From positions 1 through 64,000 of IMG/VR virus record IMGVR_UViG_3300003962_000026: 64,000 nucleotides of DNA. One strand, written 5' to 3'. This stretch comes from a virus (taxonomy: Duplodnaviria > Caudoviricetes). The notes beneath the pieces are model-generated. The model saw nothing but the letters and a program-made list of their open reading frames with translations, was not told where the DNA came from and made no database searches. The translations under genes and the position numbers were made by a program. Below, piece by piece: positions 7,214 through 60,506 of this stretch (positions are counted from its first letter, which is position 1; the number at the start of each line of letters is the position of its first letter).

Positions 7214-10200
7214 ATGGCAGATAATACACAAAATTCAGTTAATGTTCCTAAGATTGGAATGCAGCTTTGGAAGCATCCTCAGGATTTAGAGAATACTGAA
7301 TTTTCTCTACTTCTCAATGGTAATATTCAATCTTCAGTTGGTACTTTCATTAAAGTGTCAAATGAACATTCTAATTTGCTATGTTCAAGATTTAAGGAAG
7401 GATTTAAAGTAATAGGTATCTTACCCATAAATATACAGGAAAGAACTATTTACTTTCTGGTAAATCCAGAAACAAATGAATCAGAAATAGGTGAAATAAA
7501 GAATATTAGTTATAGTGATAAAAATGATATAGAAGTTTTCTGTAAAGAATGTAAAAATTCATCATTGCCTGATATCCCATTGGAGCAAGTAGAGCAGAAT
7601 GCTAATTGTACTTATTCCACTATTATATCAGCCTCGTGTCTTAACTTTTCCATAAACCATCCCATATCAGCAACTTACGAAATAGGAGTAGATGTTCTTT
7701 CAGGATTACCTAATTGCAATACTACAATCTTCTTTGCTGACGATTTAAATTCACGAAGATTCATAGATTTAGAAAATCCACCATACATACTTCTTGGTCA
7801 TGAAGATAATGACTGTAAAATACCAATCTATTCTAAAGACCTGGATTGCAATAAAATAAAAGTACAGAGAGATTATCAGGAATTATGTATATCTGCCACA
7901 GATATCACAACAGGAGGAGCTCTATCAGCAGGAGTATACCAATTTACCGGTGCGTATTCTACACCAATAGGAATTCCTATTACAGATTATTTTCTAGTCA
8001 CAAATCCAATACCACTATATAATAAACAGAGAACAATAACTATACAGACAGATTATCCTACAGATAAATCAATAAAATTACAGATATCAAATCTGGATAG
8101 TAAATTTTCACATTTTAATCTGGTAGTCCTAAAGACTATAAATCAAACAACTACTCCCTTTCTTATAGGCACCTTTCCTGTTCAATCTGACATTTTTTCC
8201 TATACTTATACAGGAAATAACTATGAAAATGAAGTACGATTAGATATAGCTGAAATACTCCGTAGGAGACCTATATACGATACTGCTAAAACAGTAATAA
8301 CAGCTAATAAACTGCTATTCTGGAAAGGTTTAAAAGAACAAAGGGAGATAAATCTACAACCTTCAGTAAATACCCTACATCCGTACTGGCAAACTGTACA
8401 GGCTCCTCAGGATTTTTACTCAGACTCTATAAATGCAACCAATGTAGGGTATTGTAGAGACGAGGTAGTCCCTCTTTCTATATATTTTAAATTCAATAAT
8501 GGATTTAAAACTGCTGATTTTCTTATATCGGGGAAAGATGCAGATTATTACCAGGTAAATTATTCTGTAGATGTAAATTCTACCTTCCCTACAAATTCTC
8601 CAAATGTACTACCTGTAAGTAACTGTGAGAATGTATATAGAGACAAATATTGGCAGATATACAATAGTGGATTTAAGATAGGTAATTCAAATTGCCCACC
8701 TCAAGGTAGAGGTAGTTGTTCATATACTCCTTACGAATATGGGGATTTTGCATATTGGGAGTCCTCCTTGACTTATCCAAATAATCCTGATGTATGGGGA
8801 GATTTATGTGGAAAACCTATAAGATATACTAAATTTCCAGATAACTGTATAACTCATATACATGATAATCCCACTGATAACAATTTTACAACCACTAATA
8901 ATATATATCCTATAGGTATTCTTATACCTATAGATGAAATAAAAAGAGTATTAAATGATGCTGTAGATAAAGGTCTTATTTCAGAACAGGAAAAACTACA
9001 GATAAATGGATATGGTATAAAAAGAGCAAACCGTAGGTCAAATAAATCTATTATAGCAAAAGGATTATTATATGATGTATGGAAAACTCCATTCCTGGAT
9101 GGAGATGGTAATATTTTACCAGACCAATCTATTCAATATTTTGCTAATTTTCCATATAATGATTTACATGATAATATCTTCCTTAACTCGATTAAAATAC
9201 CAAATGGTTCTCCACCCCCTACAAATATTCCAATACCAATACCACATCCATTTTCACCAACATTAGAAAATAACAGATATGTATTTCATAGTCCGAATAC
9301 ACACTTCAATCAACCATTACTTGGGTCTGAAATAAAGTTAGAAACAGTAGAATATGGGGTATCTAGAGGTCAATTTGTAAATGTTGATGACCACTCAGAA
9401 TATATCCTCTTAAAACAAGGAGGTTACACACTTGCCGGAATATTAGCTACATCAGAGGCCCTTTTAGAAGTTCTTATATCAGGAGGTAATCAAATTTCAG
9501 GGACAACAGTACCTAATGGTATTGTAATTGGGATAATAACCTCTTCTCTCAGTAATCTATTTATATATATTCAGCAATGGATTGATATTATAAAGAAATT
9601 AGGACAAAGAAGAAACTATGCATCCTATTATACATCAATAGGTAATTATTCAAATTATTGTTGTGTTACAAAACAGGAAGCTGTAAGATTTCAGTCCATT
9701 TTAACAAATGGATTATATCTTCAGCCTGGAAATATTCAATTTATAGAAAATTCTGAAAACATATACCTGAATAATGTCAGGAGAGAAAGTTCTGTATATT
9801 TATCTATAGCAGGAGATGATAAGAAATTTAAACCAGTGCAGTTTTTTTGCCCTCACGAAGATAATAGTAGAGTTAATTATCCTTCATGCATAGGGGCTAA
9901 CCAGCTTCCTAATCTTAATTCAAATATAGATAGTTCCATATCTTCATTTTATATTTCTATAAAAAATTATGTACCAGACCAATATGGCACACCAGACCAA
10001 ATAGAATGGTTAGATACAGGGTATTGTGGTAAAATAGAGTGGAATAACTCCTCTCAGGATACTGCCTGTGATACTATATTTGGAGGAGATACCTATATAA
10101 ATAAATTCTCTCATAAGATAAAATTCCCATTCTTCACCCAAGAAAGGGTTGGGTATGGGCCAGATGCAGATGTACAATACTCCCTATTAGGTAATGTAGG

Positions 10201-55149: not shown

Positions 55150-55172
55150 TTTTTATTGTTTTAATTTGTTTA

Positions 55173-55203
55173 CAAATATAACTAATTAGTCTTTAATTTC
55201 AAA
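55173..55203 (-). promoter_or_regulatory. Bacteroidota consensus promoter
   Basis: TTTG-N19-TATATTTG. Confidence 0.7.
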
Positions 55204-55256
55204 ATAGAATATGCAAGTCTACATTTCTCTTTTGCTACTTTAGAATCATTTTTCCT
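55182..55256 (-). pseudogene. Stranded relic 3' end of the 5'-3' exonuclease gene
   Basis: RKNDSKVAKEKCRLAYSILKLKTN* aligns without gaps to exonuclease QYNGQEVAKDLLKKTYKLLKLHNI. Confidence 0.55.
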
Positions 55257-55814: not shown

Positions 55815-55931
55815 AAAATAAAAAAGGTCTCAAACTCAAGTGTTTATGTAGTTATCCTGCGATAATACCTTGAGAATGAGACCAATAAGTTGTAAATAGT
55901 AAAGAATAACCACATAAACAGTACAAATATA
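55815..55931 (-). promoter_or_regulatory. Promoter plus A-B-A'-B' structured leader of the HNH gene
   Basis: TATATTTG at 55931-55924; A 55919-55906 pairs with A' 55855-55842; B 55883-55869 pairs with B' 55840-55826. Confidence 0.65.
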
Positions 55932-55936
55932 CTAAA

Positions 55937-56740
55937 TTATTTGATATCTAGGTTGTCATAAAAGTCAATTTCTTCTATATTATGTAATTTTAGTAATTTA
56001 TAAGTCTTTTTAAGTAAATCTTTAGCAACTTCTTGTCCATTATATTGGATATACGTTTCATAAATTCTTCTTACAAATTGATAGTTACTCATACCTAAAG
56101 ACACAATTTTAGAAGCTTTCTTTGGCCCTAGACCCTTATTTACTTTAACATTATCGCCAGCGTCCCCTGTAAGAACCTTCAAAGCTAGATGTAAACGACT
56201 TTCATCCTCTGTCATATAAGACCATTCCTGCTTTACGTAGTTATAATGAATTCCGGGAATGCTTTTTAAGTCTTCATCTATACCACATATAATGGCTTCA
56301 AAATTAAGCTTTTTACTTATAGTATAGATTACATCATCTGCTTCTCCTATGGGTGCTTCATAAGCATAATGGTGATTAACTAGATAGTTATGCAGGTGTC
56401 CTACTATAGGTAAAGGTTCTTCTCTATTCTGCTTATATGTCTCCAGAATCTTCTTTCTAAAGTTGTTTTTACCCTTAACACACATGAAAATACCAGATAT
56501 ATCATAGTGCTCCTCTATAGCGTTAAGAATCTTAAATACCCATTCAGTTACTATACCCTCAGCTATTCCATACTCAGTTTCTGTATATTCAGGTTTCTTA
56601 TTACCTTCTTCATCCTTACCTGTATAAGCACAAATGAAGGAAAGGCTATCTGCGTCAATAATAACAACCTTTCCCTCTTTTTGCTCTTTATTCTGAGGAG
56701 GATTAAAGCTACTTCTCTTATAATCTGACCTACTTGCCAT
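55937..56740 (-). CDS. 5'-3' exonuclease / RNase H (FEN/T7 gp6-like)
   Basis: IIDADSL, KGKNNFRK...YKQNR, EADD, DEDL, GDAGDN, GLGPKKA. Confidence 0.88.
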   Translation of the reverse strand: MASRSDYKRSSFNPPQNKEQKEGKVVIIDADSLSFICAYTGKDEEGNKKPEYTETEYGIAEGIVTEWVFKILNAIEEHYDISGIFMCVKGKNNFRKKILETYKQNREEPLPIVGHLHNYLVNHHYAYEAPIGEADDVIYTISKKLNFEAIICGIDEDLKSIPGIHYNYVKQEWSYMTEDESRLHLALKVLTGDAGDNVKVNKGLGPKKASKIVSLGMSNYQFVRRIYETYIQYNGQEVAKDLLKKTYKLLKLHNIEEIDFYDNLDIK

Positions 56741-57461: not shown

Positions 57462-57610
57462 TTTTCTATTGTTTTTAGAAACTGTTCTACCTGTCTATTA
57501 TTCTGTACATCTTTTAATAGCTCTATAGCTTTAGGATAGTAAACTTTAACTATTTTCTCTTCTAACTCCTTCTTTTCCTGTATTTTGCTCCAACTCTTAG
57601 GATAATCCAT
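57458..57610 (-). CDS. Small hypothetical protein (50 aa, not in ORF track)
   Basis: MDYPKSWSKIQEKK...; overlaps both neighbours. Confidence 0.45.
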   Translation of the reverse strand: MDYPKSWSKIQEKKELEEKIVKVYYPKAIELLKDVQNNRQVEQFLKTIEK

Positions 57611-58013
57611 AACTTTCTAATATTTCTTTCTCGCGACTAATAATTTCGTCCTCTAGTACACTTCGATATAATGGGGATATACCTATCTGGGTTTGTAATA
57701 TAGCATAAATATGGTCAATATCCAAGTCCTTTATAAGAACATACTGGGTTTCAGGTAATCTGTTACCTTCTTTATCATAATTCTTTCCCCATTCCATTAC
57801 AGCTCTTCGCGTTTCATGTTTACCGTCATCGTAAACTGTTAAATCTTCATAAGGTATAGTATTTACACTTCTTCTGAAATACATATCATTACCACCATCT
57901 GTCATGTATACCTCTCCATTTTTATCTGTGTGTATCTGGAAATCATGTCTATACCTTGAGTGTAAAACTGTACCATCTGGAGTTCTTATACTATTACGTA
58001 AAACTTTTCTCAT
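57597..58013 (-). CDS. Conserved-type phage hypothetical protein (138 aa)
   Basis: N.I.TPDG..L.S..RHD...H.D.NG..Y..DGG motif. Confidence 0.6.
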   Translation of the reverse strand: MRKVLRNSIRTPDGTVLHSRYRHDFQIHTDKNGEVYMTDGGNDMYFRRSVNTIPYEDLTVYDDGKHETRRAVMEWGKNYDKEGNRLPETQYVLIKDLDIDHIYAILQTQIGISPLYRSVLEDEIISREKEILESYGLS

Positions 58014-58591
58014 ATTGCTAAATATTGTTCTAAACTTCTTGTTTTGAAATTAAACTTTCTATCCTTTCCTTTACTAGTTTTGAGTAAGGTTTTTGGCATA
58101 AAAGTCTTTGAAAATAAGTCATCATTCTTAACTACCTGACAAAATATCCCATACTTTGCCCAAAGCCATTTAATATTTAAAGTTGCTAACCTTGTCATAT
58201 TGTTAAAGTCAAATGAAGGTTTTGATTCTATATAGCTGATTCCCAATTCATTACAGATAAAATAGTTATTCCACTTATATCCAAATTGGGTACAGAATTT
58301 TTTAACCCCTTTATCCTCCCAATGAATTTCAAAGTCCAAATTAAAACTGTGCCCGTGTAATATAGTCTCTGTTTTTGGTCTACTTTTAGTTTTGAGTTGT
58401 TCTACATAATTATTAACCAAACTATCACTTAATAAGTAGCTTTGACCTCTTTTGAATTCTTTTATAAACCCATTATCTTTCAATTCCTGCCAATAATGGC
58501 ACATATAAATTTCTCCGGGTGAATCGCAAGGTATCTGGTTAAAATATACAGGCTCCCTAGTTTTTGGTTTATTCTTTTTTTTTGATTTCAT
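58010..58591 (-). CDS. PD-(D/E)XK nuclease (possible resolvase)
   Basis: SFNLDFEI...YIESKP catalytic pattern; DSPGE helix. Confidence 0.6.
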   Translation of the reverse strand: MKSKKKNKPKTREPVYFNQIPCDSPGEIYMCHYWQELKDNGFIKEFKRGQSYLLSDSLVNNYVEQLKTKSRPKTETILHGHSFNLDFEIHWEDKGVKKFCTQFGYKWNNYFICNELGISYIESKPSFDFNNMTRLATLNIKWLWAKYGIFCQVVKNDDLFSKTFMPKTLLKTSKGKDRKFNFKTRSLEQYLAI

Positions 58592-58592
58592 C

Positions 58593-59327
58593 TTATTTTC
58601 TTTTTAATTCCCATCTGAACCCACCAGCAACTCTAAAGGGGTATTTTGGATTATAGCTATTTTGTATTTTTTTAAGGTCTATGTTTAATTCATCGCTGGC
58701 TAATCTGGCAGATTCCCATTCTTTTATAAAATTTCCGTCTAAATCTTTTTGAATCACTTTATTAGAATTTGATAATGATACTTTTTTATTATGTTCTTCA
58801 GATTTAGGTTTACCTTTAAGAGGACTGGGTAAATTTTTTCTTTTAGATGGTTTTCTTGGAAAAGTTAATTTTACACTATCTGATATTTTCTTTCTTGTTT
58901 CATCTGAATGAATTTTACCAGTCATTGGATTTATATACCCTTCTTGATATTTTCTTTTTTGTACTTCTTTTTGAAGATTTATGGTTTCTTGTGACATACC
59001 AGGATTAAGATATGGGCCTGTAGGTGCTATATTATACCCATATTCCCTATTATGTGTATTTAGCATATTCGCCCACCAATTTTCCATTGATGGTAAAAAC
59101 TCTCTTTCATATTCTTCTAATATTTCAAATTCAAAATTTTTGTCACCATACTTATTAAAAGAGTTTTGAAGATATTTATTACTGTGCGAATTATTTAATA
59201 GTTGTCTTCTATGCTCATACATTCTACTAATTGCATTTGCTGAATAACCTACTATTGCCTTTTTATCTATAGCATTACTTATAATATAGATTGCTGAAAC
59301 ATCATTTTTAAGTCTTCTTCTACCCAT
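58593..59327 (-). mobile_element. GIY-YIG homing endonuclease with NUMOD3/NUMOD1 tails
   Basis: AIY..SN...IVGYS...R..EH...H.N..LQ.SFNKYG..NFEFEILE, E, GYN; HSDETRKKIS and VIQKDLDGNFIKEWES. Confidence 0.88.
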
Positions 59328-59470
59328 AATAAATACAAAAGCCTCAAATTCAGGTGCTTACGTCATCTACTCTTGATAGATAACCCTGAAAATGAGGCTT
59401 TAAAAAGTTTGTTAATATTGTAGATGACATAAGCATTACAATTATACGTAAACTTTTTCACATTTCCAAA
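59328..59470 (-). promoter_or_regulatory. Promoter plus A-B-A'-B' structured leader of the GIY-YIG gene
   Basis: TTTG-N20-TATAATTG; A 59434-59420 pairs with A' 59370-59356; B 59401-59385 pairs with B' 59354-59338. Confidence 0.7.
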
Positions 59471-59556
59471 TTCGTAAGTTTGAACTTATCACAAGGAATT
59501 CCGTTAAAATATACTGGTTCTCTTACTTTAGGTTTATTTCTATCCTTTTTACTCAT
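59458..59556 (-). pseudogene. Stranded relic 5' end of the PD-(D/E)XK nuclease gene
   Basis: MSKKDRNKPKVREPVYFNGIPCD(KFKLTNLEM*) vs MKSKKKNKPKTREPVYFNQIPCD at 58591. Confidence 0.85.
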
Positions 59557-59563
59557 ATCATAT

Positions 59564-59803
59564 TTATTTCTTTTTATAATGTATTCTACATAAACCCTTA
59601 GAGAAAGCTCTTTTACTACACTATTTACAAGCTACAAATTCTCTCTTTCTTCTATGGGCAAATGTTCTGTATCTGTCCTTCTTTTTAATTAGTTCTACTA
59701 CTTCTTTTACTTTAGGTAAACCTCTTTTAACAATTATTTGTCTATGGATATCCTGGATGTAGCAAATACCCCAATCATTGAACCTTTCTTTAAATGTAGC
59801 CAT
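59564..59803 (-). CDS. Small Zn-finger protein (79 aa with internal TAG at 59621-59623)
   Basis: ...VAC-K-TAG-CSKRAFSKGLCRIHYKKK-TAA. Confidence 0.6.
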
Positions 59804-59805
59804 TT

Positions 59806-59955
59806 TTACTCTTTTAGGTAATCAAATCCTTCTATTATACCTCTTACATAACCTTCAAAGTTCTTATCCCTACCATCATTAGTATTATCACTTTTAACCT
59901 TATCCTCAAGCAAAGATACATAATATTCTTCTATTTCCTGTTCTTTCTTTAACAT
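59806..59955 (-). CDS. Small hypothetical protein (49 aa, not in ORF track)
   Basis: MLKKEQEIEEYY...; fills gap. Confidence 0.45.
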   Translation of the reverse strand: MLKKEQEIEEYYVSLLEDKVKSDNTNDGRDKNFEGYVRGIIEGFDYLKE

Positions 59956-59967
59956 AAGGTTATTATT

Positions 59968-60441
59968 TTATGTTGGATTTTGTATTTCATGTTCTTTTTC
60001 TTTCATAAATTGTTTAAATCTATTCCAGGTTTCCAAATTTTTTTTATTTTTAACAAATGATTTAGTAAATCTCATCCTCTGCCTAGCAGGTATTCTCCAA
60101 TTCTTATCCCCTGTATAGGCTATTAGGTATGTAGTTATAGTTTTTCCGGTCTCTACCCCTATTTTATAGAATAGATTCTTAGCTAAAACATAACTATGTT
60201 TTCTGTTACTATGTTGTCCTTTTACATCTAATCCTGTAAATTCTTCTACAAGAGCAGCTATTTCTTTAACTTTGGCTTCATTTTGTTCTAAATTACACAG
60301 GCTTCTCTTTAAATCGTAGATTTTTACTGATAGTTTTCCTGTTTTTTTACCTTTTTGTTTTCCTTCTATCCTTCTTTTAGTATAATTAGCTATTCTTTGC
60401 TGAAGAGAATTCTTATTGCGACTATCCCACTTTCTTATCAT
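59968..60441 (-). CDS. Hypothetical basic protein (157 aa)
   Basis: Lys-rich ORF downstream of terminator. Confidence 0.55.
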   Translation of the reverse strand: MIRKWDSRNKNSLQQRIANYTKRRIEGKQKGKKTGKLSVKIYDLKRSLCNLEQNEAKVKEIAALVEEFTGLDVKGQHSNRKHSYVLAKNLFYKIGVETGKTITTYLIAYTGDKNWRIPARQRMRFTKSFVKNKKNLETWNRFKQFMKEKEHEIQNPT

Positions 60442-60454
60442 AATAAATAATAAA

Positions 60455-60491
60455 AAGCTACCTGCAAAGGTATATACTCTACAGGTAGCTT
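60455..60491 (-). terminator. Intrinsic terminator after rIIB
   Basis: AAGCTACCTG / CAGGTAGCTT stem followed on the minus strand by TTTATT. Confidence 0.65.
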
Positions 60492-60506
60492 GTTTGTTTA
60501 AAATTG

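Follow-up and report, generated by a model that had tools for sequence, protein, structure and literature searches.

The window analysed here is the first 64 kb (64,000 nucleotides) of the 75.9-kb IMG/VR record IMGVR_UViG_3300003962_000026, a metagenome-assembled contig of a virus from the Caudoviricetes with a completeness of 61% according to CheckV. All genes near the locus considered below are encoded on the minus strand, and rIIA-like and rIIB-like genes are located upstream of it on the same strand. Comparison of the region with 50,697 phage records by blastn yielded no match at the DNA level. Reading the minus strand from 60200 to 57800, we observe the following features:

59803-59621, minus strand: ORF of 60 aa, the first in order
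59556-59458, minus strand: relic ORF of 32 aa, from the ORF listing
59556-59488, minus strand: 23-codon apparent relic of the start of the resident gene, with an ATG of its own in apparently native upstream context, duplicating codons 1-23 of the gene at 58591
59487-59458, minus strand: junction and non-homologous tail of the relic ORF, nine codons and TGA; homology to endonuclease-free alleles stops at 59487
59469-59441, minus strand: candidate promoter-like site TTGGAA-N17-TATAAT, the best-scoring site in the region
59437-59328, minus strand: structured 5' leader, identified by folding and by homology to the leader of an HNH gene
59327-58593, minus strand: predicted GIY-YIG/NUMOD3 homing endonuclease gene, 244 aa, intact and free-standing, assigned via Pfam and PHROG
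58591-58523, minus strand: putative replacement start, the first 23 codons of the working gene, delimited by alignment to the relic
58591-58010, minus strand: target gene, 193 aa, predicted TnsA-like PD-(D/E)XK-fold protein, according to homologues and predicted structure

The relic ORF and the 244-aa ORF are separated by 130 non-coding bases, and the ATG of the working gene starts 1 nt past the stop codon of the endonuclease gene. The span 59487-58523 comprises 965 bp and holds the promoter-like site, the leader, the endonuclease gene, and the new gene start. Upstream of the relic, the TAG of the 60-aa ORF falls between Cys-x-x-Cys-like residues (window 59564-59640, minus strand), and the frame past this TAG stays open until a TAA located 7 nt before the relic ATG.

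The endonuclease, its leader, and the target protein

The 244-aa protein matches Pfam NUMOD3 above the cut-off (E 4e-6), so that a C-terminal DNA-binding module of this type is present; Pfam GIY-YIG, with E 2.8e-4 and 21.6 bits, falls just under the curated cut-off of 22.6, and the match to PHROG 314 "homing endonuclease" has E 2.8e-29. Residues Y14, G27, R35, H39, E82, and N99, invariant among the endonuclease relatives (alignment A5), are all intact here. By these matches, the protein is a predicted GIY-YIG + NUMOD3 homing endonuclease, I-TevI/Seg-like. No second genome carrying this particular endonuclease was found in the databases searched, the best relatives being 39–42% identical, and the same databases yielded neither a donor nor a sister endonuclease-plus allele of the locus; the 14-member alignment of the endonucleases was too diverse to serve as a search query. 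In the contig of the closest endonuclease relative (L009, 39% identity), interleaved stems precede the ATG of the endonuclease gene (L009:3874-4000) and a member of the target family lies 3.4 kb downstream of it (8126-8725); the comparison of the two flanks of the gene reveals no relic there.

The promoter-like site TTGGAA-N17-TATAAT scores 10 out of 12 and is a candidate, as the number of such sites in the region is not above that in shuffled sequences. Its second hexamer overlaps TATAATTG, which we take to resemble the TAnnTTTG -7 box of the Bacteroidota. Boxes of the TATAWTTG form are seen before several genes (window 55171-55186, 55922-55937, and 59437-59452, minus strand); presumably they, too, resemble the Bacteroidota TAnnTTTG -7 element and may hint at the host phylum. 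A 16-nt motif of the promoter region has 30 matches in the window against 9.2 expected, and is unspecific, given the three mismatches allowed.

In the predicted fold of the leader (minimum free energy -32.4 kcal/mol, z -5.4), a long hairpin spans about 59401-59338, and a U-run comes after it, immediately ahead of the endonuclease ATG; in an alternative pairing, the upstream arm 59434-59420 pairs with 59370-59356. A homologous leader is located at 55922-55812 (minus strand), before an HNH endonuclease gene at 55814-55257. Each of the two is about 115 nt long, and their consensus comprises 15 pairs, four of them compensatory. The GIY-YIG and HNH genes are unrelated, yet each has a promoter-like box, a long hairpin, and a U-run before its ATG. 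The covariance model of the leader detects these two copies and no other in the 350 kb searched (the window and 47 other loci); in particular, it does not find the leader of L009, considered as a further copy, and the likeness of the latter is in layout only. A terminator scan called no terminators, the loop of the leader hairpin exceeding its 8-nt limit. By analogy with T4 endonuclease genes, a role of the leader in limiting expression of the endonuclease is plausible.

Pfam yields no hit for the 193-aa target protein itself; weak matches to TnsA_N and DUF1064 occur in some members of its family. The protein has about 30 homologues (31 in alignment A1). The single-protein search of IMG/VR with the target yielded no relatives, whereas the alignment-based search did yield family loci. 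TnsA is the top, though middling, match of the AlphaFold2 model (pLDDT 91.5) according to Foldseek, with probability 0.92 and E 0.05 and no PDB match at E <= 0.001, and according to VIA-align (Z 7.2, rmsd 4.1, 126 aligned residues), where PD-(D/E)XK nucleases dominate the rows below. No meaningful match resulted from searching PDB sequences with a profile. In the members inspected (alignment A1), E122 and K124 are invariant, E27 is nearly so, and position 86 is occupied by D or E. The preliminary description of the locus, made from the DNA sequence, had called the target a nuclease; the predicted TnsA-like PD-(D/E)XK fold together with the conserved E...D/E...ExK pattern makes this plausible, and, as judged from the model, the 193-aa protein is likely a nuclease.

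The two copies of the gene start

The 23 codons of the relic align in register with the start of the working gene: 10 codons are identical, seven are synonymous, and six are non-synonymous, with 48 out of 69 nucleotides the same. The preliminary description had reported the positions of the relic ORF (59556-59458) and the working start (58591), 15 identical residues out of 17 in codons 7-23, different synonymous codons in six of these 15 (CCT/CCA, AGA/AGG, GAA/GAG, CCA/CCT, ATT/ATA, TGT/TGC), and the loss of similarity after the GAT codon (59490-59488 in the relic, 58525-58523 in the working gene). The coordinates and counts are exact, the codon-by-codon recount gives the same numbers, and past the GAT codon the next 30 nt match at only eight positions. 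The longest identical run common to both copies is 12 nt. The junction after D23 directly precedes the conserved D-S-x-G-E motif; this is where the protein becomes ordered and where homology across the whole family sets in.

The similarity of the copies is hardly accidental. In the protein search of the whole 75.9-kb record, the relic is the only second hit (E 1.2e-6), and local alignment of one flank of the endonuclease gene to the other yields a score of 98, first among 75 endonuclease loci. Reversed sequences, used as the null for this score, have mean 39.8, standard deviation 6.3, and maximum 66; thus, the match is far above chance.

The reading frame of the relic is intact. According to the Nei–Gojobori method, pS is 0.82 and pN is 0.19 (Fisher p 4.7e-5), that is, silent sites are saturated and replacement sites are conserved, which implies that both copies have been under protein constraint for nearly all their divergence. 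Judging by these substitutions, the two copies diverged as working alleles in separate phage lineages and not via local duplication. The synonymous differences had been described earlier as a recoding; they are not a special design, since saturated pS with low pN is ordinary divergence between alleles of long-separated phages.

The closest homologue of the target, P0002 (75% amino acid identity), is encoded on two Logan contigs, L004 and L005. There the target gene is single and uninterrupted, with no endonuclease gene beside it, and the contigs are partly syntenic with the window: one downstream gene is 54% identical and one upstream gene 29% identical. Both copies from the window map to the same stretch of L004: the relic with 19 upstream bases (59575-59487) matches L004 5986-6073, and the working gene (58566-58086) matches L004 6029-6509. 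The relic had been explained by a 965-bp unit interrupting the gene after codon 23, and the endonuclease-free orthologue in L004 and L005 is indeed continuous at that point. At the junction itself, for which a comparison with an endonuclease-free allele had been suggested, the relic is identical to L004 over ATT CCT TGT GAT A and departs from it afterwards; the corresponding sequence of the working copy is CAG ATA CCT TGC GAT TCA CCC, including an AGT-to-TCA serine switch. Relatives retaining both copies in the absence of the endonuclease had been named as the outcome that would speak against the insertion; a second copy is present in none of the 70 other family loci lacking an adjacent endonuclease gene. 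The occurrence of the endonuclease at this locus is patchy: it is absent from L004, L005, and these 70 further family loci, and one more locus (L101, see below) has a different one.

The relic is similar to the L004 orthologue at the protein level (blastp E 1.6e-7): its first six residues are those of L004, and the stretch encoding GIPCD is identical as well. Over the first six codons, 16 out of 18 nucleotides of the relic coincide with L004, compared to 10 out of 18 for the working start; over the last 11 codons, the counts are 28 and 25 out of 33, respectively. This nearness to L004, measured on the few sites of 23 codons, points to the relic as the resident copy. Identity to L004, profiled in sliding steps along the window gene, shows no foreign-to-native boundary, L004 being too distant for this (70% nucleotide identity).

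Duplicated gene ends at other loci

Two surveys of IMG/VR loci were carried out. In the endonuclease survey (80 loci with relatives of the endonuclease fetched, 75 usable), 600 nt upstream of each endonuclease gene were compared with 600 nt downstream at the protein level; in the target-family survey (80 loci fetched, 71 usable), each gene start was compared with the 2 kb upstream. The former, a search for short protein-level duplications flanking endonuclease genes of the kind that the preliminary description had proposed, singled out, in addition to the window, L086, with a score of 78. Two further matches, L072 (score 62) and L058 (65), were rejected, as their alignments cross stop codons and the scores are within the null range. 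In the target-family survey, 70 out of 71 loci were at the null level (maximum 44), and L101 scored 92.

In L101 (IMGVR_UViG_3300046804_004458), the layout of a 5'-end replacement is seen at 1642-2569:

1642-1713: relic of 24 codons, from the comparison of the gene start with the upstream region
1768-2532: HNH/EndoVII-like ORF, 254 aa, PHROG E 1.5e-10

The 254-aa ORF matches PHROGs "endonuclease," "endonuclease VII," and "HNH endonuclease." The full target gene starts at 2498, overlapping the endonuclease ORF by 35 nt, and only about 50 nt at the locus are non-coding. Compared with the endonuclease-free relatives L102 and L103, the relic retains 22 out of 24 residues and 59 out of 72 nucleotides, and the working start only 47 out of 72 nucleotides. 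The gene in L101 is 58–71% identical to that in L102 over the first about 70 nt, and then at once 82–93% identical; over the same first stretch, L102 and L095 are 80–87% identical. This jump of identity at the end of the relic implies that the working start is foreign and the gene body is native. By its predicted genes and alignments, L101 is an independent case of the same layout in the same gene family: unrelated endonuclease families in the window and in L101 occupy one gene family seven codons apart.

In L086 (93-1139), it is the 3' end of a gene that is duplicated. A distant GIY-YIG gene sits between the terminase-like and portal-like genes, and beyond it the final 22 codons of the terminase-like gene recur; each copy terminates in a stop codon, and pS is about 1, with pN 0.28. 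On the evidence of the alignment, this is a 3'-end version of gene-end replacement. The same endonuclease gene with its upstream non-coding stretch occurs in L080 (2873-3728) at 95% nucleotide identity, with flanks that differ from those in L086 and with no relic.

A 24-aa frame right after the HNH gene in the window (55185-55256, minus strand) resembles the C-terminal end of 5'-3' exonucleases, and a gene of the exonuclease family is located at 56740-55937. With the HMM of this family, constructed without the window's own protein, the 24-aa frame is the second best of 2,967 six-frame fragments (E 0.053), its alignment covering positions 241-260 of the 270 in the profile. The flank-to-flank test gives no match of the frame to the tail of the resident exonuclease (score 40, equal to the null mean), and the IMG/VR search yielded no close relatives of the window exonuclease. 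At the HNH locus, this genome probably contains a 3'-end replacement, a weaker case than the GIY-YIG one.

Proposed origin of the presumed hybrid gene and its relation to known systems

The reading that we regard as probable is that repair of an endonuclease-triggered break imported the endonuclease gene together with a foreign 5' end of the target gene, while the resident start was left behind as the relic. The donor would be another phage, with a diverged allele of the target gene and, immediately 5' of it, the endonuclease gene. The enzyme would have cut the endonuclease-free resident allele near codons 23-24, just before the DSxGE motif, and the break would have been repaired from the donor: on the 3' side, via homology in the gene body, with copying leftwards through the donor's first 23 codons, the endonuclease gene, the leader, and the promoter; on the 5' side, by joining the new DNA at or next to the break. 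The latter join may have been illegitimate, because the upstream genes differ, or may have used as a homology arm a relic already present in the donor. The outcome would be a hybrid gene consisting of a foreign start and the body, with no need for splicing, and the resident 23-codon start stranded upstream. The ORF of this presumed hybrid gene is intact and of full length, with the conserved residues present.

The polarity could also be the reverse, with the working start native and the relic and the endonuclease gene brought from a donor and inserted upstream. As the phage has no close relatives, where each copy came from is deduced from short comparisons, and the A-rich sequence immediately preceding the relic carries little information, which leaves some room for this variant. 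However, L004 resembles the relic and not the working start, both in the first six residues (16 of 18 nucleotides) and in the identical GIPCD stretch; in L101 the native-like copy is clearly the relic and the outlier is the working start; and the distance between the endonuclease stop and the working ATG, 1 nt in the window and a 35-nt overlap in L101, indicates that these travel together. We thus consider the reversed polarity unlikely. A local tandem duplication of the gene start with subsequent divergence, the endonuclease gene being inserted between the copies or unrelated to them, would be in line with short direct duplications arising by replication slippage. A dead copy, however, is expected to gain replacement changes and stops as fast as silent ones, contrary to the observed pS 0.82 and pN 0.19; the copies in L101 and L086 show the same pattern, and the relic in L101 matches other genomes better than its own neighbour copy. 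Such a history seems to us extremely improbable.

Very little weight should likewise be given to a group I intron carrying the endonuclease gene; on this view, splicing would join the relic, as exon 1, to the gene body, and the internal start would be there by accident. It is true that the relic ends in T, as required at a group I 5' splice site, that group I introns of phages often harbour GIY-YIG genes, and that the leader has interleaved pairings. Still, the Rfam search of 57500-60500 gave no family, intron or other, at E <= 1; the non-coding DNA amounts to only about 130 nt, and in the L101 equivalent to about 50 nt; the base before the proposed 3' junction (58523) is T and not the required G; the same leader precedes an HNH gene placed between genes; and the complete in-frame start makes splicing unnecessary. 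The earlier suggestion that the gene is kept without splicing agrees with this: the working ORF is of full length, there is no group I intron signal, and there is no room for such an intron. Since the source is a metagenome-assembled contig that is 61% complete according to CheckV, one may also think of an assembly artefact, a chimera of two strain variants. But the longest common run of 12 nt is too short for a k-mer join, the junction lies outside that run, and L101 and L086 have the same architecture in independent assemblies from other samples, making an artefact a far-fetched explanation.

Under import of the foreign gene start by break repair, the enzyme encoded at the locus presumably made the cut, and the cut site may have been at about codon 23. 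GIY-YIG enzymes can cut at a distance from the insertion point; hence, the site of cleavage may be other than the junction. The new allele may be protected from cleavage by the sequence differences near the junction. Once formed, the relic can act as a left homology arm, so that the 965-bp unit could home as one piece, and it may now be mobile in this form. The tight or overlapping arrangement of the endonuclease stop and the new start implies that those two parts must travel together, and only that; the data fit a one-off scar and an established cassette alike.

Among known systems, the closest are gene hybrids formed by mobile endonuclease ORFs (mORFs) in fungal mitochondria (PMC3630166, where Paquin et al. 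1994 is cited). Examples are atp6 in Allomyces macrogynus and atp6, atp9, cox2, and nad3 in Glomus sp.; as proposed for the window, the endonuclease ORF brings a foreign gene end with it, a duplicate of this end, the native one, stays behind nearby, and splicing is not needed (PMC3630166). In the fungal hybrids, the native copy closely resembles endonuclease-free relatives, and the inserted copy is 64–81% identical at the nucleotide level with a highly similar protein (PMC3630166). The mORF-type layout, in which a gene end and its diverged duplicate in the same orientation flank an endonuclease gene, is found in the window. The differences are that mORFs replace 3' ends, often with the ORF fused in frame, and are mostly LAGLIDADG genes of organelles, whereas in the window a GIY-YIG gene of a T4-like phage is associated with a 5' end that includes the start codon, and the endonuclease gene, unlike the often-fused mORFs, stands apart and is preceded by a promoter-like site and a leader of its own.

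The free-standing endonucleases SegF, SegG, and MobE of T-even phages ("intronless homing") are similar in that the GIY-YIG/NUMOD endonuclease gene lies between genes and presumably its product cuts the neighbour in genomes without the endonuclease; they are likewise inherited with flanking DNA, and one-sided homology leads to illegitimate junctions (PMC2988022, PMC2790892). For T4 intron homing, one-sided, illegitimate break repair with microhomology junctions is attributed to Parker et al. 1999 in the summary given in PMC2988022. In contrast to the window, the T4 genes occupy clean intergenic positions and flanking markers are co-converted, and we found in the literature no description of a stranded duplicate of the target 5' end for T4 endonucleases. 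In HEG-islands of ICP1-like phages, small genes beside endonuclease genes are fragments of neighbouring essential genes, suggested as possible recombination substrates (Barth et al., 2023; PMC10055350). The authors mention these fragments, recognised through nucleotide homology, only briefly, and describe no end replacement, junction mapping, or native/foreign assignment (PMC10055350). A limited literature search revealed no description of a 5'-end replacement including the start codon in a phage protein gene.

Besides introns and inteins, gene-end replacement would be a third route for a homing endonuclease gene to enter a coding gene without destroying it, in this instance in a phage and at the gene start. 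One gene family has been hit by endonucleases of two unrelated families at nearly the same spot, just before its first conserved motif. Relics of this kind may account for some of the tiny orphan ORFs beside phage endonuclease genes, flag hybrid genes resulting from exchange between distant phages, and serve as a pointer to likely cleavage sites readable from the genome itself. A broader generalization, that 5'-end-replacing endonuclease cassettes are a recurrent, self-contained class of splice-free invaders of phage genes, with the relic as the upstream homology arm, is offered tentatively, and we consider it somewhat less probable than its opposite. If it is true, the whole unit, comprising the promoter, the endonuclease gene, and the new start, would home precisely into coding sequence, as introns do, and the ends of relics would record the cut sites of endonucleases, readable from genomes at scale.
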